64,000 nt of DNA from Patescibacteria group bacterium (GTDB lineage: Bacteria; Patescibacteriota; Microgenomatia; UBA10105; UBA927), in the NCBI GenBank assembly GCA_035510735.1, contig DATKGN010000004.1:243810-307809 (forward strand). Direction: 5' to 3'. The first letter of the stretch is position 1, and every line of letters starts with the position of its first letter. Positions 5,586 through 62,370 of this stretch are shown here, piece after piece. The notes under the pieces were generated by a model that saw only the letters and a program-made list of their open reading frames with translations, ran no database searches and was not told the origin of the DNA. The translations under genes were made by a program, and so were the position numbers.

Positions 5586-6131
5586 ATGCCAATCTATACC
5601 CGTACCGGAGATGCAGGTACTACAGCGCTTTTTGGCGGCAAGCGGGTGTTAAAATCCGAAGCCCTTGTTGACGTCTACGGATCCGTTGACGAATTAAACA
5701 GTTGGGTTGGACTTATTACCTCACAGATGAAAGAGACTCATCTTATAAAACTTTTTTCGGAAATTCAGTCGGATTTATTTTCCGTTGGCGGGTGTCTTGC
5801 TGGATGGAAGACAGAATTGAATATGCTTGAGACGCGTGTTACACAAATGGAAGTTGAGATTGATGCAATGGAAAAAGAATTGCCGCCGCTTACAAATTTT
5901 ATTCTTCCCGGGGGATCACAGCTCGCAAGTCAGATCCACGTTGTCAGAAGTGTTTGCCGGCGCGTTGAGAGACAGGTTGTTGCACTTACCAAAACACAAA
6001 CGGTTGACCCGCGCATTATCAAATATTTAAATCGGTTATCCGACTTGTGTTTTATGCTCGCACGGTTTATAAATAAAAACGAACATGCTGAGGAAGTAGT
6101 GTGGTCTGGAATTCCAAGGCAGAAAAAATAA
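5586..6131 (+). CDS. pduO: PduO-type ATP:cob(I)alamin adenosyltransferase
   Basis: N-terminal IYTRTGDAGTTALFGG signature of PduO-type corrinoid adenosyltransferases (EC 2.5.1.17). About 180 aa. Confidence 0.8.
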   Translation: MPIYTRTGDAGTTALFGGKRVLKSEALVDVYGSVDELNSWVGLITSQMKETHLIKLFSEIQSDLFSVGGCLAGWKTELNMLETRVTQMEVEIDAMEKELPPLTNFILPGGSQLASQIHVVRSVCRRVERQVVALTKTQTVDPRIIKYLNRLSDLCFMLARFINKNEHAEEVVWSGIPRQKK

Positions 6132-6185
6132 AGTAAGGAATCGAGGAACGCTGTGTAAATCAGCGGCTGTGCCGCAACCGTGGGC

Positions 6186-6213
6186 CCCTCCTTCGCGTAA
6201 AGCTTCGGAGGGC
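6186..6213. repeat. Hairpin repeat family 2 copy (CCCTCC-TTCGCGTAAAGCTTC-GGAGGG)
   Basis: Perfect 6 bp stem with a conserved loop. Near-identical copies at 20560-20588, a variant at 30644-30700, and a reverse-orientation copy inside tsaD at 15184-15209. Confidence 0.6.
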
Positions 6214-6258
6214 AAGCCGGGAACTCCTCCTTACCTATTATCCCGAGCAGGAGTTTTT

Positions 6259-6690
6259 ATGGTTACTAAAAAGTTATTCGGCATCATACTCTTCATTTGC
6301 TGCGCATTTTTCCTTGCTTGGAGAATTACTTCATCGTTACCTCAAAGCCGTACGGTTTCTTCTGTAAGAACTACACAATCGATAAACAAAAATTCCGTTC
6401 GTGTGTCGTTGACACTCGATACAGGAGAAAAAATTGCAACCTACGACGGTATTATTGCATCCAATGCATTTGACGCGCTCATTGCCGTTACCCGGGCACA
6501 TGCAATTTCTTTAATCACGAAAAAATATGACTTCGGTGTGTTTATCCAACAAATTGGCACATTTCCAAACACAAAAGATAACGCGTGGGTTTATTATGTC
6601 AACGGAGTATCAGGTGATGTTGCCGCAGATAAAAAAACTGTTAAAAACGGCGATACCGTTCTTTGGAAGTATACAAAACCGCTGTATTAA
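6259..6690 (+). CDS. Membrane-anchored DUF4430 / transcobalamin-like C-terminal domain protein (putative corrinoid-binding)
   Basis: Start taken at ATG 6259, which has an RBS gagcaggag; the tracked ORF starts at 6169, and those upstream codons translate the hairpin repeat. TM helix then a C-terminal W.YYVNG...G......NGD.VLWKY block typical of PF14478. Confidence 0.5.
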   Translation: MVTKKLFGIILFICCAFFLAWRITSSLPQSRTVSSVRTTQSINKNSVRVSLTLDTGEKIATYDGIIASNAFDALIAVTRAHAISLITKKYDFGVFIQQIGTFPNTKDNAWVYYVNGVSGDVAADKKTVKNGDTVLWKYTKPLY

Positions 6691-13839: not shown

Positions 13840-13911
13840 GGAGCCGTAGCTCAGCGGTAGAGCGCTACTCTTATAAAGTAGATGTCCTTGGTCCGAATCC
13901 AAGCGGCTCCA
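13840..13911 (+). tRNA. tRNA-Ile, anticodon UAU (TAT)
   Basis: Folded by hand. Acceptor stem GGAGCCG/CGGCTCC is a perfect 7 bp; D arm GCTC-AGCGGTA-GAGC; anticodon stem CTACT/AGTAG with loop CUUAUAA (U33, A37); variable loop 5 nt; T arm CTTGG-TCCGAAT-CCAAG; discriminator A. CCA is not encoded. Confidence 0.8.
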
Positions 13912-13912
13912 C

Positions 13913-14437
13913 ATGGAATTAGTTGTTCTCGTTGATGATCAAAATAACGAATTAGGGACACGCCCGAAAGATGATGTTCATTCGAATCATACGCCGCTCC
14001 ATCGCGGATTTTCCCTTTTTCTGTTTAATAATAAACATGAATTATTGATCACCCGTCGTACGCATACAAAAAAAACGTTTCCCGGTGTGTGGACGAATAC
14101 AGTCTGCGGTCATCCCGGTCCGGGTGAACAGGTCATTGATGCGGCTAGGCGCCGGTTAAAAGAAGAGATGGGGGTCGGGGGCGTTGATGTGAAAGAAGTG
14201 TCACCGTACCGATATAAGTTTACCGATATTCATGGAATTGTGGAAAATGAAATATGTCCAATTCTCATTACATTTGCCGATGTGAAACCAAAAATAAATG
14301 AGCGGGAGGTGGCGGGGTGGAAATGGATTCCATGGAAAGATTTTCTCACCGAAATACAGCTTAATCCATCGTCGTATTCACCGTGGAGTATTGAAGAGGC
14401 GGAAATTATTAAAAGATTAAATCTTCTCAACGGATAA
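13913..14437 (+). CDS. idi: Isopentenyl-diphosphate delta-isomerase type 1 (Nudix family)
   Basis: LHRGFSLFLFN...TFPGVWTNTVCGHP...GE...AARRRLKEEMGV matches the IDI-1 active-site region. 174 aa. Confidence 0.75.
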   Translation: MELVVLVDDQNNELGTRPKDDVHSNHTPLHRGFSLFLFNNKHELLITRRTHTKKTFPGVWTNTVCGHPGPGEQVIDAARRRLKEEMGVGGVDVKEVSPYRYKFTDIHGIVENEICPILITFADVKPKINEREVAGWKWIPWKDFLTEIQLNPSSYSPWSIEEAEIIKRLNLLNG

Positions 14438-15622
14438 ATCAGGAACTGCCGTGATATCGTGCCAGTTGGTGGGCGAACCCCTGAAATACGCATAGCTTGC
14501 AATATATACGGCGTTATCGGTGCACAGTGCTACCGGTGGCACAAACATTGTTATATTGTTATATTGTTTTATTGCTGAGTTCATTTTTTCTCTTAGCCGC
14601 AGATTAGCGGCAACGCCTCCCGATAAAAGAATTGATTTCGCCTGATGTATAGAAGCTGCATGGAGAGTTTTTTTCACCAGCACATCCGTTATGGACTCCT
14701 GGACTTCATAGGCTAATGCGCTTGTCATTCCGGCCTCCGAGCTGGAATCTATTTTTTTCGGGGTGGATCCCGGGTCAAGCTCGCCTCGCTGACGCGGCGA
14801 AGCGGGCCCGGGATGACATTTATTCCATTCTCGAAGAACCGCAGTTTTCAGTCCCGAAAAGGAAAAATTAAGCGATTTATCATGCATTAACGGACGCGGT
14901 AACTTAATTCTTCCCGTTGTCATTCCGGCCTCTGAGCCGGAATCTATTTTTTTCGGGGTGGATCCCGGGTCAAGCCCGGGATGACATTGAGAGGCCGCTT
15001 CCTGAATTGCCGGTCCTCCGCGGTTTTCAAATCCCAACAGTCTCGCCGTTTTATCAAACGCTTCTCCCGCCGCGTCATCGAGCGTACCTCCGAGCCATGT
15101 TAAATCCTTAATAGATTTCATGAGATAAAGCTCAGTATGACCGCCGCTAACGACAAGAGAGATGGCGGGAAACTCGATGCTTGCCCCGCGAAGCTTTAGC
15201 GAAGTGGGGTTGTCCCTCGACTGCGCTCGGGACGAATTTTGTCCTTCGTCATTGCTCAGGACAAAATTCGCATACATGTGGGCGAGAACGTGATTAACGG
15301 GGATGAGGGGTTTACCGGTCGTAAACGCAATTGTTTTTGCCGTTTCAACGCCGACGAGAAGAGAGCCGATGAGTCCCGGTCCGACGGTGATTGCGATTTG
15401 ATCGATCGATGCAAGCGTTTCCTTTGATTGTTTAAGGGCTTCTTCAATTGTCGGGATAATGCAGACAAGCTGCTCGCGCGCAGCCACTTCAGGGACGATG
15501 CCGCCGTATTTTGCGTGCATGAGTGTCGAACTTGCAACAACACTTCCCAGGATTGTTGTACCGTTCTCAACAACGGCCGCCGCCGTTTCATCGCAGGATG
15601 ATTCTATACTCAAAATTTTCAT
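14417..15622 (-). CDS. tsaD: tRNA N6-adenosine threonylcarbamoyltransferase TsaD, with three in-frame repeat-element insertions
   Basis: MKILSIESSCDETAAAV...HAKYGGIVPEVAAREQ and SGGHTELY core motifs. 401 aa, above the ~335 aa I recall for TsaD (from memory). The extra peptides coincide with the palindromic DNA elements. Confidence 0.88.
   Translation of the reverse strand: MKILSIESSCDETAAAVVENGTTILGSVVASSTLMHAKYGGIVPEVAAREQLVCIIPTIEEALKQSKETLASIDQIAITVGPGLIGSLLVGVETAKTIAFTTGKPLIPVNHVLAHMYANFVLSNDEGQNSSRAQSRDNPTSLKLRGASIEFPAISLVVSGGHTELYLMKSIKDLTWLGGTLDDAAGEAFDKTARLLGFENRGGPAIQEAASQCHPGLDPGSTPKKIDSGSEAGMTTGRIKLPRPLMHDKSLNFSFSGLKTAVLREWNKCHPGPASPRQRGELDPGSTPKKIDSSSEAGMTSALAYEVQESITDVLVKKTLHAASIHQAKSILLSGGVAANLRLREKMNSAIKQYNNITMFVPPVALCTDNAVYIASYAYFRGSPTNWHDITAVPDLSVEKI
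14723..14818. repeat. MITE-like palindromic element family 1, copy B (96 bp), in frame within tsaD
   Basis: Termini TGTCATTCC...GGGATGACA. Internal hairpins TTCCGGC/GCTGGAA and ATCCCGGG/CCCGGGAT. Has a 28 bp extra hairpin relative to copy A. Translates as ...CHPGPASPRQRGELDPGSTPKKIDSSSEAGMT. Confidence 0.75.
14919..14986. repeat. MITE-like palindromic element family 1, copy A (68 bp), in frame within tsaD
   Basis: Same termini and hairpins as copy B, near-identical. Translates as CHPGLDPGSTPKKIDSGSEAGMT. Confidence 0.75.
15184..15275. repeat. Composite hairpin insertion inside tsaD (family-2 loop motif plus two further palindromes)
   Basis: Contains CCCCGCGAAGCTTTAGCGAAGTGGGG (reverse complement of the family-2 loop), GTCCCTCGACTGCGCTCGGGAC, and the 11 bp stem GAATTTTGTCC...GGACAAAATTC. 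Encodes the extra TsaD segment VLSNDEGQNSSRAQSRDNPTSLKLRG between HMYANF and FPAISLVVSGGHTELY. Confidence 0.6.
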
Positions 15623-16083: not shown

Positions 16084-16107
16084 AGGTTATCACTCGATTG
16101 TTTCATT

Positions 16108-16174
16108 GTTCTATTGTTGTATTGTTGAAAGACGTTAGGATCAACGTAGCAATTTAACAATATAGCAATAGAAC
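16108..16174. repeat. Intergenic 19 bp imperfect inverted repeat with ATTGTT direct repeats
   Basis: GTTCTATTGTTGTATTGTT ... AACAATATAGCAATAGAAC separated by about 29 bp. Each arm carries three copies of ATTGTT at 8 bp periodicity. Lies between two same-strand genes. Confidence 0.5.
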
Positions 16175-16179
16175 AATTT

Positions 16180-40604: not shown

Positions 40605-41444
40605 TTATGTCGGGAGTGTAAACAGCGTCCGGGCGTTTTTGGTTGTTTGCTCTTCTACTTCAGTGTAGGGGATATTGAGCAATTCCGCAATTTTGTGGGC
40701 CACGAGCGGAATGTTTTTGGGTTCATTCCGCTGCCCGCGGTGGGGGATGGGGGTCAAATACGGCGAATCGGTTTCCAAAAGTATCATAGAAAGCGGGATT
40801 GACGGGACAATGAGTTGCAGTTGTTTTGAAAAGGTGAGATTGCCGTCGATGCCGACAAATAGATTTCTTCGTTTCGCTTCACGAAGGTCCTGAAGCCCGC
40901 CGGAGAAACAATGAATGACCCCTCGCGGCATGGTTGGGACATTGTCCATGACGTCAAAGAAGTCTTCATACGCATCGCGGCAGTGCATGATCACCGGCAG
41001 ATTATGGTTGAGGGCAATGCGGAGTTGTTCCTCAAACAGAATTTTTTGTTCCTGTTTTTTCCCGGCGGCCACCTCGCCCTTAAATAAATGGTAATCCAGG
41101 CCGATCTCGCCGATTGCTATTATTGTCATTCCAGGCTTGACCTGGAATCCATCTTTGTTATTGCCCGAATCGGGATCCCGGATCGGGGTCCGGGATGACA
41201 ATATTAATTGTTCAAGAGCGTTAAGATCGTGTTCATGTGACGCTTCATATGGGTGAAAGCCGATACTTGCGAAAACAACACCAGCATTATTTCTCGCAAG
41301 TTGTATTGCAAGCGTCGAAGAAAACATATCAACGCCGGGACAGATAAACTGTTTGACCCCGGCTTTTTTGGCATTCCCGATGACCATGGCACGGTCGTCA
41401 TTGAACTGTTCAAACATGAGGTGACAGTGGGTGTCGATGAACAT
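40605..41444 (-). CDS. tatD: TatD-family metal-dependent hydrolase/DNase, with an in-frame repeat insertion
   Basis: MFIDTHCHL start and IAIGEIGLDY. The tracked ORF extends to 41582 through repeat copy D; the likely true start is ATG 41444. A 25-residue insert is encoded by repeat copy C. Confidence 0.78.
   Translation of the reverse strand: MFIDTHCHLMFEQFNDDRAMVIGNAKKAGVKQFICPGVDMFSSTLAIQLARNNAGVVFASIGFHPYEASHEHDLNALEQLILSSRTPIRDPDSGNNKDGFQVKPGMTIIAIGEIGLDYHLFKGEVAAGKKQEQKILFEEQLRIALNHNLPVIMHCRDAYEDFFDVMDNVPTMPRGVIHCFSGGLQDLREAKRRNLFVGIDGNLTFSKQLQLIVPSIPLSMILLETDSPYLTPIPHRGQRNEPKNIPLVAHKIAELLNIPYTEVEEQTTKNARTLFTLPT
41124..41200. repeat. MITE-like palindromic element family 1, copy C (77 bp), in frame within tatD
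   Basis: TGTCATTCC-AGGCTTGACCTGGAATC...ATCCCGGATCGGGGTCCGGGATGACA. Encodes SRTPIRDPDSGNNKDGFQVKPGMT. Confidence 0.7.
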
Positions 41445-41473
41445 ATATTTTATTGTCATTCCCGCGAAGGCGG

Positions 41474-41540
41474 GAATCTCGAATTCAAAAACTGGATCCC
41501 CGATCAGGTCAGGGATGACATTATTATTGAATCCTCGGGA
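41474..41540. repeat. MITE-like palindromic element family 1, copy D (67 bp), at the metG 3' end / tatD 5' junction
   Basis: TGTCATTCC-CGCGAAGGCGGGAATC...GGATCCCCGATCAGGTCAGGGATGACA. Overlaps the last about 17 nt of the metG ORF. Confidence 0.7.
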
Positions 41541-47775: not shown

Positions 47776-48414
47776 ATGACATTCTTATTCATTCACGGTA
47801 CTTTTGAATCACCAAATAATGCTTGGTTTCCGTGGTTGAAAAACGAGTTACAAAAGATGGGCCATATTGTGATAGCGCCGCAATTTCCGGTGGACAAATG
47901 GTCGGAGATATCCAAGCAGCCTGTGTCCGAATACGCTCCTACGCAACAATTAGGTGCATGGTTTGATGTTTTCGAAAAGATTCGTAACACTATTAAACCG
48001 GATACAAAATTATGTATTGTTGCCCATTCATTAGGCCCCGTGTTTACGTTACTCGTCGCTCAAAAATATTCTATGCAATTAGCGAATGCATATTTTATTG
48101 CGCCGTTTTTTGAGGTGTACGGGAAATCCGACTATATTGAAAAGGCAAACGATTCGTTTTATCATCAACAATTCGATTTTCCCAAACTACGGAGGCTTAT
48201 TCCAAATTCAACTGTTCTGTACAGTGATAACGATCCATATATTGATAAACTTAAATCTGTAGAATTTCGGGAAAAATTGAAGAGCAAGATTGTAAGGTTA
48301 CACGGGTTAGGTCATATGGGATCGGAATCGGGCATGAAGGACTTTCCCCAATTACTCGATCTGATCAAACAAGATAGTAATATAATAACCCGACATGACA
48401 AAAGTATCCGTTGA
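47776..48414 (+). CDS. YdeN/RBBP9-like serine hydrolase, paralogue 4
   Basis: LFIHGTFESPNNAWFPWLKNEL and IVAHSLGP. Confidence 0.7.
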   Translation: MTFLFIHGTFESPNNAWFPWLKNELQKMGHIVIAPQFPVDKWSEISKQPVSEYAPTQQLGAWFDVFEKIRNTIKPDTKLCIVAHSLGPVFTLLVAQKYSMQLANAYFIAPFFEVYGKSDYIEKANDSFYHQQFDFPKLRRLIPNSTVLYSDNDPYIDKLKSVEFREKLKSKIVRLHGLGHMGSESGMKDFPQLLDLIKQDSNIITRHDKSIR

Positions 48415-51400
48415 TGAAGGCTCATTGAACGAACAGCAATTGAAAGCCGTGAAGCACGGCTCCGGGCCTCTTATGATTATCGCCGGGGCCGGGACTGGGA
48501 AAACAACCGTCGTTACGGAGCGGATAAAATATCTTATTGCAAAGGAAATCGTAAAACCCGAGGAAATTTTAGCCCTCACCTTCACCGAAAAAGCGAGCCG
48601 CGAAATGGAAGAACGGGTCGATAAAGCATTGCCGTACGGGGTCACGCAGATGTGGATTTCAACGTTTCATGCGTTTTGCGACAGGATATTACGGAATGAA
48701 GCCATTAATGTAGGCATTGACCCCGGGTACACACTCATGACAGAGGCGGAGACAATCATGTTTTTCCGGAAGAATATTTTCCGATTCGATCTTAACTATT
48801 TCCGTCCGCTCGGAAACCCGACGAAATTTATCGCCGGTATGGTCGGACATTTCAGCAGGTTAAAAGATGAGGATGTGACGCCGACGGAATATCTCAAATG
48901 GGCAAAATCCCCCGGAGGTAAAAATCAAAATTCCAAATCCAAAATAAATGCAAAATCCAAAATTCAAAATGGAGAAAACGATCAGAATGAAGGAGAAAAA
49001 TATTTTGAACTTGCAAACGCTTATAGAACATATGAAGAGCTTAAAGTGAAGGAAGGGGTTTGTGACTATTCTGATTTAATCAGTCAAGTACTACTTATTT
49101 TCCGGACGAGACCGAAAATTCTCGCTAACTATCAGAATCAATTTAAATATGTTCTCATTGATGAATTCCAGGATACGAATTTCGCGCAGAATCAGTTGGC
49201 CATTCTCCTTGCGGGTCGGAGAAAGAATATTACGGTTGTCGGCGATGATGACCAGGCGATTTACCGCTGGCGAGGTGCGGCCGTCTCCAACATGATTCAA
49301 TTTCGGGCGTCATTTCCGAAAGCAACCATTGTCGTGTTGACTTCAAATTATCGGTCGACAAAAGAAATACTTGACCGTTCATACGACCTGGTCCAACACA
49401 ATAATCCCGACCGGCTGGAAGTCGCGGAAAAAATTGAAAAGAAATTGGAGAGCGCGCGAAGAATAAACGGGGAGAAGATTCAGGTTTTGTTCGCCGATCG
49501 CGTGGAAAACGAAGCGGATGCCGTCGCGCGGAAAATTGTTGATGTCATGAAACAACATAACGAATATTCATACTCGGACATTGCTCTGTTAGTACGTGCG
49601 AATAATCACGCGGATCCGTTTGCGAGAGCTTTTGCACGGTCGGGAATACCCTATCAATTTTTAGGGCCGGGACAACTGTACCGGCAACCGGAAGTGAAGG
49701 ATCTTATCGCATATCTCAAGGTTCTTTACAACTTTGAAGACAGTGTCGCGATGTACCGGCTCTTAACCATGGATTGGCTGAACTTGCCTCCGCGAGATGT
49801 AGCGTCACTGTCAAATTACGCAAAACGGTATGGAATTTCCATTTTTGAAGCATGCGAAGCGCTATCTGGGAACGCGCCGCAAAATTTTCTTGATCCGCTG
49901 CTCCCTTCGGCTCGCGTTGCTCGCTCAGGGCAAGCGCAACAAGATATTGCTAAGTTTAACCTGAGCGAAGCCGAAGGTCTCGATAAGCGATCTTCGAAAA
50001 TTTCGCCTCGCGTTCCCACGCGTATTCCTAGGCCTTTTGTAACTGATGAGACGCAAAAAAAGGTTATACAACTGGTTGCCATGATCCATAAACACCTGGG
50101 ATTAATTAAAAGAGAAACAGCGGGGCAGATTCTCTATTATTTTCTTGAAGACACAGGCTTACTCAAACGGCTTGCGAATTACGAATCGGTTAAGGATGAG
50201 AAAATTGCGCTTAATATTTCCAAATTTTTCAACAAATTGAAGACGTATGAAGTTGAGCACGATGATGCAAGCGTTTTTACCGTCGTCGACTGGATCGATT
50301 TATCCATGACACTCGGAGAATCACCGATGTCAACGGACGCCGACTGGAGCGATAATAATGCCGTGACACTTATGACGGTTCATTCCGCAAAAGGGCTCGA
50401 ATTTCCTGTGGTTTTCCTCGTTAATTTAGTGTCACAACGGTTTCCGACGACACAGCGGAAGGAACAGATTCCTATTCCCGAAGCGCTCATTAAGGAAGTA
50501 TTGCCGACCGGGGATTTTCACACACAGGAAGAGCGGCGGCTTTTTTACGTCGGAATGACCCGCGCACGCGATCTCTTATTTTTAACCGCGGCAAAATTTT
50601 ATGGTGAGGGGAAACGGGAGAAAAAGTTATCGCCGTTTATCGCGGAATCGCTGGGGACTGGTTTTGAGGATTCTATCGTCATCGATGAAGGGCGTAATAC
50701 AAAGCAGTTATCTTTTTTGGACTGGGCGAAACCGGAAGAACCTACAAAAAAAATGGTAGGTCACCCGATTTCGTATCTTTCTTATTCACAGCTTGCAACG
50801 TTTGAAACGTGCCCGCTTCAATATAAATATCGGTATATTATAAAAATTCCGATTCCGCCGTCTGCAGCTTTGTCGTTCGGTGATACTATTCACAAAGTCG
50901 TGCGCGCATTTTATGAACTTGTAAAAAATGGAGAGCATCCGACCCTGGAAACATTATTTCAGCTGCTTGATGAACATTGGGTGTCAGTCGGATTCGGTAA
51001 TAAGGCGTATGAAGCAAAGCTGAAGGCACACGGTAAAGAGTTATTGGAGGGGTTTTTCAAAAAGGGATATGATCCGAAAACTATTCCGATAGCTCTTGAG
51101 GAACCGTTTAAGATAAAAATTACCCCAGAGCTTACGCTCGGGGGAAGAATTGATCGGATTGATAAACATGAAGACGGCACGATAGAAATCATTGATTATA
51201 AAACCGGTCAAGCGCCAAAGAGCCGGGATGCGGCACGCGATGAACAGTTGACAGTGTACGCGCTTAGCGCTGCACAAGGTGGCATCTATAAAGACCCGCC
51301 AAAAAAGGTCATCGTTTCGTTTTATTTTTTTGAAGGCCAGGAAAAATTGTCCGCGACAAGAAATCAGGAGGAGTTGGCCCTTGCCCGTAAAGAGATTTTT

Positions 51401-51499
51401 GAAAAAGCAAAGCTCATGGAACAAAGTGATTTTGCCCCGACGCCCGGAAGACACTGTGATTTCTGCGAATTTCGTCTCATCTGTGAAGCGTGGAATTAA
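48395..51499 (+). CDS. UvrD-family helicase fused to C-terminal PD-(D/E)xK RecB-like nuclease (AddA-like)
   Basis: Walker A IIAGAGTGKTT, helicase motifs (VLIDEFQDTN, VGDDDQAIYRWRGA). C-terminal GRIDRIDKHEDGTIEIIDYKTG nuclease motif and CDFCEF...C cluster. Confidence 0.8.
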   Translation: MTKVSVDEGSLNEQQLKAVKHGSGPLMIIAGAGTGKTTVVTERIKYLIAKEIVKPEEILALTFTEKASREMEERVDKALPYGVTQMWISTFHAFCDRILRNEAINVGIDPGYTLMTEAETIMFFRKNIFRFDLNYFRPLGNPTKFIAGMVGHFSRLKDEDVTPTEYLKWAKSPGGKNQNSKSKINAKSKIQNGENDQNEGEKYFELANAYRTYEELKVKEGVCDYSDLISQVLLIFRTRPKILANYQNQFKYVLIDEFQDTNFAQNQLAILLAGRRKNITVVGDDDQAIYRWRGAAVSNMIQFRASFPKATIVVLTSNYRSTKEILDRSYDLVQHNNPDRLEVAEKIEKKLESARRINGEKIQVLFADRVENEADAVARKIVDVMKQHNEYSYSDIALLVRANNHADPFARAFARSGIPYQFLGPGQLYRQPEVKDLIAYLKVLYNFEDSVAMYRLLTMDWLNLPPRDVASLSNYAKRYGISIFEACEALSGNAPQNFLDPLLPSARVARSGQAQQDIAKFNLSEAEGLDKRSSKISPRVPTRIPRPFVTDETQKKVIQLVAMIHKHLGLIKRETAGQILYYFLEDTGLLKRLANYESVKDEKIALNISKFFNKLKTYEVEHDDASVFTVVDWIDLSMTLGESPMSTDADWSDNNAVTLMTVHSAKGLEFPVVFLVNLVSQRFPTTQRKEQIPIPEALIKEVLPTGDFHTQEERRLFYVGMTRARDLLFLTAAKFYGEGKREKKLSPFIAESLGTGFEDSIVIDEGRNTKQLSFLDWAKPEEPTKKMVGHPISYLSYSQLATFETCPLQYKYRYIIKIPIPPSAALSFGDTIHKVVRAFYELVKNGEHPTLETLFQLLDEHWVSVGFGNKAYEAKLKAHGKELLEGFFKKGYDPKTIPIALEEPFKIKITPELTLGGRIDRIDKHEDGTIEIIDYKTGQAPKSRDAARDEQLTVYALSAAQGGIYKDPPKKVIVSFYFFEGQEKLSATRNQEELALARKEIFEKAKLMEQSDFAPTPGRHCDFCEFRLICEAWN

Positions 51500-61003: not shown

Positions 61004-62370
61004 TGACCGTCAGACCCAAAAATTTCCGATTCGACGGTAAAGTTCGTCGTACCTACCGGAATCGTATAATCAAGTGTATATTCGCCTGCGCTATTTTGTA
61101 TTGCCGTTTCGGTAAACGCGCCGCCGTTGACACGGATATGCGCCTTTGTTGCATTGCCACCCGCAACTGCAATCGTCACGTCATCGCCCGGTTGAAGAGC
61201 AGCGAGCCCTGCCGCATCCAGCACGGTAGTTCCTTTATAGACCTTAATATTCGTACATTGAGAAGCAGGAGTAGGAGTGGGTGTGCTACCCCCTCCGCCG
61301 CCACCCCCTCCGCCGCCACCCCCTCCGCCGCCACCGTTAGAGGTCGTCACTGTACAACCAATGGTATTTTGACCGCCACTCGAGGCACATGTCGTATAGT
61401 GCCAATTAGCACAAGCGTCTGCATTTTGTCCCTGATCGCATCCTACTCCGGCTGGCACCCATGTTTGGCCAGGCCCGGGTGTAGGAATTACACCAGTCTT
61501 TGGATCTGGGGTTGGGAATACGATCGGTGGTAATTTACCGCTTGCATCAAGGTTTGCCTGAGGGTTAGAGACAACTTCAACCCCTGGATTAGCTATGGCA
61601 AATTTAAGTGCTGCTGTTTCTGTATCCGGCAATGCAATAATGAACCGCTGACCGTTTGAAATATAGGTGCCGGCGATCTGTACAGGATTAGAGCCTGTGG
61701 TAGCCTGCCACTGCTCTTTCGTGGCAACTGTAGTGGTACCGCTTATCGTTCCGTAAGTATTTACTGGTGCAGTTGCCGCCGCGGCCGCCGGAGCTGCTGT
61801 TGCCGGAGCTGCTGTTGCTGCTGCCGCAGCCTGCTGAGCGTTATAGTTATCATTTTTCGCCTCCTGGTTTGCGTTAATGTGTGCACAATATCCGTTTGAT
61901 TTATCACATGCAAAACCAAAAAGGGTAAGGGTATTTTTTATACCAATGACTGCAACGGGCAGAGTAACGAGCATAAACAAGAGAAGCGTGATAACCCCCA
62001 CGCGGGATTTCTTTTTTTTGATCGTCTCATGCGGCGGAGTTACCGGTTCTGCCGGCGGACTTTGCTTCGGATCCGAAGGCTTTGCTATTTTTATTTCCTC
62101 CTCAGGTGGAGGGACGATAAGAGAATCTGAAGGAGGCGACGCCATAAAGGGAGAGCCCGAAAGCGGTGTAGGCGTTGGAGGATCCTGCGTGTGGCTTGGG
62201 GTGGCAGAATCCGGCAGTGTTTGCGTCGGTTGTCCGGCAGGTGATGCACTTAAGGGAGAATTGGTCGACATCGGGTCTGGTGGCGGAGGCGCGACCGACG
62301 CCGGCGCAGATCCCTGCGAACCTGCTTTACTACTTGTATCTGCTTGTGCTGTGTCTAAAATGTCTGCCAT
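60994..62370 (-). CDS. Surface/secreted protein with Pro-rich N-terminus, TM helix, poly-Ala/Thr and poly-Gly low-complexity tracts
   Basis: G17 run encoded by three 15 bp tandem repeats (CCCCTCCGCCGCCAC x3, 61289-61333). AAAAATAAPATAAPAAAAATAP encoded by repeated gccggagctgctgtt units. Confidence 0.5.
   Translation of the reverse strand: MADILDTAQADTSSKAGSQGSAPASVAPPPPDPMSTNSPLSASPAGQPTQTLPDSATPSHTQDPPTPTPLSGSPFMASPPSDSLIVPPPEEEIKIAKPSDPKQSPPAEPVTPPHETIKKKKSRVGVITLLLFMLVTLPVAVIGIKNTLTLFGFACDKSNGYCAHINANQEAKNDNYNAQQAAAAATAAPATAAPAAAAATAPVNTYGTISGTTTVATKEQWQATTGSNPVQIAGTYISNGQRFIIALPDTETAALKFAIANPGVEVVSNPQANLDASGKLPPIVFPTPDPKTGVIPTPGPGQTWVPAGVGCDQGQNADACANWHYTTCASSGGQNTIGCTVTTSNGGGGGGGGGGGGGGGGSTPTPTPASQCTNIKVYKGTTVLDAAGLAALQPGDDVTIAVAGGNATKAHIRVNGGAFTETAIQNSAGEYTLDYTIPVGTTNFTVESEIFGSDGQWH

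Follow-up and report, generated by a model that had tools for sequence, protein, structure and literature searches.

Inverted pairs of CGTC-type REP hairpins, probable members of a known and widespread repeat family, lie in frame in tsaD and tatD of a Patescibacteria genome

What are the two short palindromic segments that lie within the tsaD gene of a Patescibacteria group bacterium without breaking its reading frame? The gene is found in a 64,000-nucleotide stretch of contig DATKGN010000004.1 (assembly GCA_035510735.1, positions 243,810 to 307,809), hereafter called the window. An earlier note, made from the sequence alone, had described the two segments (elements A and B) as miniature inverted-repeat transposable element (MITE)-like insertions that behave like the Rickettsia palindromic elements (RPEs). 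We consider it probable that A and B, together with two further copies in the window (C and D), are inverted pairs of CGTC/TGTC-tagged repetitive extragenic palindromic (REP) hairpins, belonging to the sequence class of the Neisseria dRS3/NTS repeats, the Ssn-related motifs (SRMs), and Rickettsia RPE-6, a reading that includes the conjectural scheme for an Ssn-type nuclease set out below. Membership in this known and very widespread repeat family makes the elements a clear new example of it rather than a new kind of element; the kind itself is known. The coordinates of all features are collected in Table 1.

The product of the host gene matched the Pfam TsaD family (E = 3.5e-76) and the TsaD structures of the PDB (E = 1e-64), the latter in an alignment broken into four blocks. 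With its 401 amino acids (aa), the protein had been called unusually long, and it does exceed the solved TsaDs, which have 327–354 aa; its close relatives, however, range from 318 to 443 aa. Both elements start with TGTCATTCC and end with GGGATGACA, and these 9-nt termini are complementary, as claimed. The reading frame passes through both in whole codons and without stops, also as claimed, giving a peptide of the form CHPG...EAGMT. The lengths given in the earlier note, 96 and 68 bp, are correct for A, but B has 69 bp. The entire difference in length between the two is due to a 27-nt palindrome nested in A, and the rest of the alignment shows only 2–3 substitutions. Each copy folds into two hairpins, as described, with single-strand energies that beat those of shuffled sequences (z = −2.4 to −4.1). 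The internal stems reported previously, TTCCGGC/GCCGGAA and ATCCCGGG/CCCGGGAT, are exact for B, but in A the first has one G-T mismatch (GCTGGAA) and the second carries the nested palindrome. Similarly, the reading of GGA-ATG-ACA as Gly-Met-Thr is common to the three intragenic copies of the window (A, B, and C), but copies in relatives lie in other frames or orientations. A search of Rfam gave no match on the elements; an intron, an intein, or an RNA element was rejected on this ground and because the frame is kept and the structure is that of a simple two-hairpin DNA repeat.

The claim that the segments are insertions was borne out by alignment with orthologues. The solved TsaDs leave three stretches of the query unmatched (aa 122–147, 212–239, and 265–301), the last two of which correspond to B and A. 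The nearest relative protein (P0001; 352 aa, 81% identical over aligned positions) is encoded on a contig (L121, from assembly GCA_964385705.1) that is syntenic with the window, sharing genes for VanW, a cytidylyltransferase, a NUDIX protein, and a pre-ATP-grasp protein. Here, tsaD has colinear flanks and is 84% identical in nucleotide sequence to that of the window, and it is devoid of A, B, and a third insert. The elements are not pure additions, because each takes the place of part of an ancestral loop, amounting to ∼40 nt at site A. No target-site duplication was visible at A or B in comparison with L121, and direct repeats in the flanks of 162 pairs occurred at the chance level only. An AlphaFold2 model of the protein (mean predicted local distance difference test score (pLDDT) 79.8, predicted template modeling score 0.80) has a confident core, with coil of pLDDT < 50 at aa 124–143 (third insert), 217–233 (B; 217–219 and 227–233), and 275–287 (A). 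The inserted segments are thereby predicted to form disordered loops on an otherwise normal TsaD fold.

The third insert has no counterpart in L121, falls into a gap of the PDB alignment, and was resolved into its hairpins by folding. A near-identical peptide occupies the same site in another TsaD homologue (P0004). The "empty" site B of L121 (∼6630–6670 of that contig) has a perfect 7-bp hairpin of its own, GTCTCGC-TCC-GCGAGAC, encoding the peptide RVSLRET, and this loop is not repeat-free.

The elements are also not confined to tsaD. The pattern TGTCATTCC-N(8-14)-GGAATC-N(30-60)-GGGATGACA had four matches in the window (A–D) and none in 100 shuffles, and many other genomes carry such pairs too, in line with the earlier view of A and B as copies of a repeated element. 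In the alignment with TatD structures of the PDB, aa 117–152 of the tatD product are unmatched, at element C. The listed tatD open reading frame (ORF) extends to 41582, and TatD homologues start at query aa 45–47, near Met47; D is placed just upstream of tatD, outside the likely coding region. Inspected by eye, the left half of D, TGTCATTCCCGCGAAGGCGGGAATCTCG, differs from the Neisseria NTS consensus (PMC11893778) at 2 of 28 positions.

We then asked what is constant in these copies. In an alignment of all four, TTGTCATTCC, GGAATC, GGATCCC, and GGATGACA are invariant; the inner stem bases vary from copy to copy with pairing kept (GGC/GCC, AGG/CCT, and CGC/GCG). From these invariant parts and complementary inner stems, each half can be defined as a TGTC tag, an 8-bp stem starting with AT, a short loop, and a C, and the two halves of each pair are inverted, with the tags outward. 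A structure-aware scan for tag, stem, and tail recovered the eight halves and one likely chance match in the window, against a mean of 0.54 in simulated sequence; pattern and structure-aware scans of the 64 kb together gave four dimers and no monomers. All eight half-sites begin with TGTC (CGTC-tagged REPs being recognized by a CGTC, TGTC, or CCTC tag) and have an 8-bp stem beginning with AT with at most one mismatch. Their loops measure 4, 5, 5, 5, 6, 6, and 6 nt, and one reaches 32 nt through the nested insert. The tail has C as its first base in every half, followed by a second C in five and by T in three.

The same architecture is kept far beyond the window. Our search pattern left the three inner stem pairs and the base after the right stem free. 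Among 131 pairs from many phyla, full complementarity of these inner pairs was nonetheless seen in 93 of the left and 82 of the right halves, with at least 15 different triplets, and the free base was C in 114. One tsaD-borne stem (L123) shows a compensatory change from GGG/CCC to GGA/TCC. The covariation of the inner stems and the free C provide strong evidence that what has been conserved is the hairpin together with the bases flanking it. Counts of strand-specific G-T wobbles, taken as a sign of the strand that folds, were uninformative, as they were dominated by mis-registered stems of other subfamilies.

A class of repeats with these properties was described by Di Nocera, De Gregorio & Rocco (BMC Genomics 2013; PMC3733652). 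CGTC-tagged REPs carry the tag CGTC, often TGTC, and stems of 8–9 bp whose first two pairs are A-T; the loop has 4 nt in CGTC-1 and 5 nt in CGTC-2 to CGTC-4, and a short unpaired tail of approximately CCA follows (PMC3733652). Genomes carry many of them, for the most part arranged as inverted dimers whose halves are separated by a spacer, and some of these dimers are intragenic and encode 20–30 residues. No dedicated transposase is known for them, and the hosts listed belong to five phyla, Patescibacteria not among them. CGTC-1 is equated with Neisseria dRS3 and with RPE-6 of Rickettsia conorii, whose dnaE contains a REP according to the same authors (PMC3733652). Elements A–D are like CGTC-tagged REPs, those of CGTC-1 above all, in their tag, their 8-bp stem starting with A-T, their short loop and C-rich tail, and their arrangement as inverted and partly intragenic dimers; they are unlike them in having loops of 4–6 nt, one with a nested palindrome, and in their host. 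The class of CGTC-tagged REPs therefore appears to fit, with loop lengths that assign the elements to no single CGTC family.

Through the string GTCATTCCCGCG, we came upon the work of Chenal et al. (Nat Commun 2025; PMC11893778), in which the Neisseria NTS is given as CGTCATTCCCGCGMAVGCGGGAATCYRG, including the dRS3 repeat, and the degenerate SRM is defined. SsnA, a GIY-YIG protein of 94 aa, binds the hairpin only as single-stranded DNA and cleaves a few nucleotides upstream of the motif (PMC11893778). Binding depends most critically on the C after the palindrome, and cleavage depends critically on the three bases that precede it. NTS and SsnA modulate transformation in N. meningitidis, and the cd10448-type GIY-YIG (ssn) gene is often flanked by the motif; Patescibacteria are not mentioned in the main text (PMC11893778). 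Three of our eight halves fit the SRM expression HGTCWYN(0-2)YYVSBRHN(0-5)WNVSBRGN(0-2)RNCYNB exactly, where simulated windows averaged 0.17 such matches, and the others are off by loop length or by one base. The critical GTC ahead of the palindrome and C behind it are kept in all eight. Together with the closeness of the left half of D to the NTS consensus and the presence of a REP-ssn-REP unit in a Patescibacteria relative (see below), this links A–D to the NTS and SRM. In contrast, the Neisseria repeats are intergenic and clustered around genes, whereas the ones described here are paired and, for A–C, lie in coding sequence.

The comparison with RPEs made in the earlier note is more than an analogy, since the halves fit CGTC-tagged REPs, CGTC-1 equals RPE-6, and our pattern also matches a pair inside a 1245-aa ORF of Rickettsia tamurae, which we take to be dnaE. 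Like RPE-6, A–C are in-frame, stop-free palindromes in housekeeping genes of a small-genome bacterium and are absent from orthologues; the host phylum differs. The classical RPE-1 is a longer element; the comparison made here is with RPE-6. A further parallel is offered by REPINs and BIMEs with their RAYT, where an inverted REP pair is likewise the repeated unit and a small hairpin-flanked gene is the presumed autonomous partner; there, however, the tag is GTAG instead of CGTC, and the partner is a Y1 (IS200/IS605-type) transposase instead of a GIY-YIG nuclease. Taken together, the defining features that we tested for CGTC-tagged REPs and for RPE-type in-frame palindromes are present, those of the SRM are present in part, and the target duplication of MITEs is missing. 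We found no relevant paper linking Patescibacteria with palindromic or REP elements, and what appears to be new here is this host group for the CGTC REP/NTS/RPE-6 class.

How widely such pairs occur was assessed by scanning a genome collection with the pair pattern, which returned at least 120 loci; the pair counts given here are drawn from the matches listed. Among these, the hosts comprise Patescibacteria lineages, Alpha-, Beta-, and Gammaproteobacteria (including Coxiellaceae, Tisiphia, and R. tamurae), Planctomycetota, Chloroflexota, Nitrospirota, Omnitrophota, Gemmatimonadota, Acidobacteriota, Spirochaetota, and Bacteroidota. Six of 20 pairs in Patescibacteria and 15 of 107 in other phyla lie within long open frames, compared with ∼55–61% of random-position controls. 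Pairs are depleted from ORFs, yet a sizeable minority is intragenic. A metagenome scan for the A/B subfamily yielded 34 loci, in which the halves are nearly invariant and the spacers freely variable. Long ORFs contain about 15 of these copies, which are read in several frames and occur in either orientation; among their host genes are those for LeuRS, PheS, a PBP2 transpeptidase, PurL, WecG, and a DUF2298 membrane protein, where the same subfamily is found in frame. In-frame insertion of this REP-pair family is not unique to the present genome but common. In an Azospirillaceae contig (L039, 2588–3042), four REP pairs form a regular tandem array with a 124-bp period.

TsaD itself has been a repeated target. 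Across the best 120 TsaD homologues, four loops are of very variable length (query aa ∼63–72, 120–150, 208–240, and 266–303), and they often hold repeat-type peptides in different frames, such as VIPAKAGI..WIPDQVGDD, CHSREGGN.., and CHPGLDPGS..SEAGMT. At site A, the window and three related loci (L123, L160, and L163) share the nucleotide junction of the element exactly (..AAR|TGTCATCCC ... ATGACA|AGY..), and decayed copies are found at this site in two others (L161 and L162). In a neighbor-joining tree of the TsaD core, the carriers of site A fall into at least four separate groups, with near relatives that are without the element. This pattern may reflect one old insertion followed by losses, transfer of alleles, or repeated insertion at one site, three histories that a neighbor-joining tree of a single protein, being weak evidence, does not separate.

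The two tsaD copies within a genome tell a different part of the history. In L163, the copies at sites A and B are identical, including a nested hairpin of their own, and A and B of the window have a common spacer not seen in other genomes. Thus, two copies ∼200 bp apart are near-identical within each of these genomes and different between them. This within-genome sameness suggests local copying or gene conversion between the tsaD copies. The nested palindromes, both located in the loop of the right REP half, are of different types in the window (14781–14807) and at both sites of L163 (GCTTCGCTGAAAGCTTCGG type); the latter is similar to the third hairpin of the insert at 15182–15259.

A possible route of mobilization is indicated by two Wildermuthbacteria loci (L124 and L125). 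Both contain a GIY-YIG gene of 99 aa (4001–4300 in L124) that is 78% identical to an Omnitrophota homologue, which is itself found amid hairpins of this kind. Upstream, a forward REP stops 7 nt short of the ATG; the 3′ end of the gene is overlain by a reverse REP, with tags outward, and there are more pairs on both sides. The tsaD pairs have the geometry of this REP-ssn-REP unit with the gene absent. On the reading that we favor, the pairs would be selfish, non-autonomous DNA, a gene-less form of the REP-ssn-REP unit, tolerated where a protein can bear ∼20–30 extra residues. As single-stranded DNA hairpins, they would be recognized by a GIY-YIG nuclease of the Ssn type whose gene lies elsewhere in the genome. 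This enzyme would nick on the 5′ side of each TGTC tag, at a distance of a few bases, just outside either end of the pair and on opposite strands. The nicks could then promote copying or recombination. As the target is not duplicated and loop sequence has been replaced, spread of a repair- or conversion-like kind is proposed rather than a cut-and-paste reaction.

Several observations weigh against this proposal. A hidden Markov model (HMM) built from 120 homologues, as well as individual GIY-YIG probe sequences, detected no ssn-like GIY-YIG gene in the 64-kb window, so that mobilization by Ssn is only inferred. With the HMM, just 2 of the 120 pair-holding genome loci were found to have a GIY-YIG gene as well (among the matches listed), and one of these matches is weak. 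No GIY-YIG enzyme is known to form covalent intermediates like those of REP transposases. That the element at site A occupies the identical nucleotide position in several lineages is as compatible with one old insertion as with ongoing mobility, and we only infer that the inserts are translated as part of the protein. Moreover, Ssn has been shown only to cut single-stranded DNA and to modulate transformation, not to move repeats (PMC11893778).

A bolder proposal is that the pairs spread by a site-directed, conversion-like process starting from Ssn nicks on single-stranded DNA, which would install or homogenize them at the same codon across lineages and also transfer copies from one loop of a gene to another nearby. 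Hints in this direction are the same site-A junction in lineages that are apart in the TsaD tree, the near-identity of A and B within a genome (in the window and in L163) combined with their difference between the two genomes, the lack of a target duplication, and the replacement, rather than simple interruption, of loop DNA. We hold it to be rather unlikely. If it were true, a GIY-YIG nuclease and a hairpin would constitute a new kind of mobility or recombination system, and the question of what moves CGTC REPs and RPEs would be answered.

Other explanations of the elements have to be weighed against selfish REP pairs. Classical MITEs are degenerate insertion sequences (ISs) with short terminal inverted repeats that are moved by the cut-and-paste reaction of a DDE-type transposase, with target duplication. 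Complementary 9-nt ends (TGTCATTCC / GGGATGACA) and a length of 67–96 bp with no coding capacity are what such an origin would give, and yet we regard it as very unlikely. A plain MITE of this type was rejected because the target duplication is lacking: repeats in the flanks of the 162 pairs are at the chance level, and at the empty sites of L121 loop DNA has been replaced, not duplicated. Each half is a self-contained hairpin with covariation of its own, single halves occur beside the ssn gene, and spacers differ freely while halves are conserved. No transposase-bearing relative with these ends turned up, though no search was aimed at such ISs, and of coding units, just the ssn gene of L124 was seen to lie between ends of this kind. 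The label "MITE-like" is therefore imprecise, as two independent REP hairpins, not a degenerate IS with long inverted ends, make up the unit. Chimeric assembly or binning at repeated sequence is a negligible prospect, even if assemblers can be misled by short GC-rich palindromes; both copies keep the frame, the flanks of the gene are colinear with a relative at 84% identity, and homologous copies at the same codon of tsaD in independent NCBI, ENA, and Logan assemblies exclude this objection, which the earlier note had raised.

The pairs could instead serve the host, either as DNA or as protein. As DNA, they might be marks that protect or expose tsaD and tatD if the cutting of incoming motif-bearing single-stranded DNA by Ssn controlled gene replacement by transformation. 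The motif is the one bound by SsnA, and NTS/SsnA modulates transformation in N. meningitidis (PMC11893778); in addition, conservation is much higher in the REP halves than in the spacers or in flanking genes. Such a function is nevertheless unlikely, given that the closest relative (L121) does without the pairs, that the site-A copies decay in L161 and L162, and that pairs are rarer in ORFs than at random positions, a depletion as expected of merely tolerated insertions. As protein, the peptides might be maintained by selection within TsaD, for example, as contact surfaces for TsaB/TsaE or tRNA, in agreement with the preserved reading frame and with the recurrence of the CHPGLDPGS..SEAGMT type at site A in several lineages. 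We consider this highly improbable. The segments are predicted to be disordered, the same loops in other relatives hold unrelated peptides or the same DNA in other frames, the nearest relative is without the segments, and conservation tracks the DNA hairpin, with its compensatory changes, and not the amino acids.

If A–D are correctly assigned, a genome of the Patescibacteria, or candidate phyla radiation (CPR), takes its place among the hosts of CGTC REP/NTS/RPE-6 repeats. In these small genomes, the repeats are often inside essential genes (those for TsaD and TatD here and for LeuRS, PheS, PBP2, and PurL in related contigs). REP-encoded segments inflate and diversify the proteins predicted from metagenomes and can mislead alignments, domain calls, and trees. 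The CPR TsaD, with its four repeatedly filled loops, offers a natural series for the arrival, decay, and tolerance of repeats, and the CPR REP-ssn-REP unit is a concrete pair of enzyme and substrate with which to ask what, if anything, mobilizes CGTC-type REPs and Rickettsia-type palindromes.

Table 1. Features at the tsaD and tatD loci, in positions of the window (assignment to the REP class is probable)
Feature	Position	Strand	Description	Evidence
tsaD (tRNA t6A37 threonylcarbamoyltransferase)	14417..15622	minus	401 aa; holds A, B, and third insert	ORF list
Element A, REP dimer	14723..14818	minus	96 bp, 32 codons; peptide CHPGPASPRQRGELDPGSTPKKIDSSSEAGMT, TsaD aa 269–300	
A, left REP half	14723..14749	plus	TGTC tag; stem ATTCCGGC/GCTGGAAT with one G-T mismatch; 6-nt loop; C	Structure-aware scan, DNA fold
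A, right REP half	14766..14818	minus	TGTC tag; stem ATCCCGGG/CCCGGGAT; loop enlarged by nested insert; tail CCA	Structure-aware scan, DNA fold
Nested 27-nt palindrome	14781..14807		Within loop of right REP half of A	Four-copy alignment, inverted repeat
Element B, REP dimer	14918..14986	minus	69 bp, 23 codons; peptide CHPGLDPGSTPKKIDSGSEAGMT, TsaD aa 213–235	
B, left REP half	14918..14944	plus	TGTC tag; perfect 8-bp stem ATTCCGGC/GCCGGAAT; 6-nt loop; C	Structure-aware scan, DNA fold
B, right REP half	14961..14986	minus	TGTC tag; perfect stem ATCCCGGG/CCCGGGAT; 5-nt loop; tail CCA	Fits published SRM expression
Third tsaD insert	15182..15259	minus	aa 122–147, ..NSSRAQSRDNPTSLKLRGAS..; in frame; three short hairpins of other palindromic families, no GTCAT tag	
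tatD-family hydrolase, host of C	40605..41444	minus		Pfam TatD_DNase E = 6.7e-70; PDB alignment
Element C, REP dimer	41124..41200	minus	77 bp, in frame in tatD; peptide ..SSRTPIRDPDSGNNKDGFQVKPGMT..	Pattern and structure-aware scans
Element D, REP dimer	41454..41520		67 bp, between metG stop (41524) and likely tatD start (∼41444)	

Some further features were recorded in the course of this analysis. A long palindrome of 152 bp (49867–50018; fold z = −5.0) lies inside an ORF for a 1034-aa UvrD/PcrA-like helicase (48395..51499), and the alignment with PcrA leaves aa 490–581 unmatched at this palindrome. Its ends (TGGGAACGCG...) are different from those of A–D and indicate another repeat family, here in a repair gene. 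In one of the other loci (L011, 1820–2250), a weaker GIY-YIG ORF (1924–2169, 81 aa) is situated between two copies of a tRNA-like sequence (GGCCCGTTCGTCTAGTGGTCAGGACACCAGG...) and could represent the insertion of a nuclease gene into, or next to, a gene for tRNA. In the window, Rfam reported a tRNA (13840–13911) just upstream of the NUDIX gene adjoining tsaD and a cobalamin riboswitch (6120–6246) with 34.6 bits, just above the threshold. A 25-nt inverted repeat (16105–16177), 88% complementary and with arms 23 nt apart, is located in the overlap region upstream of the cytidylyltransferase gene, and a 15-nt unit (GCCACCCCCTCCGCC...) is present in three tandem copies at 61285–61335.

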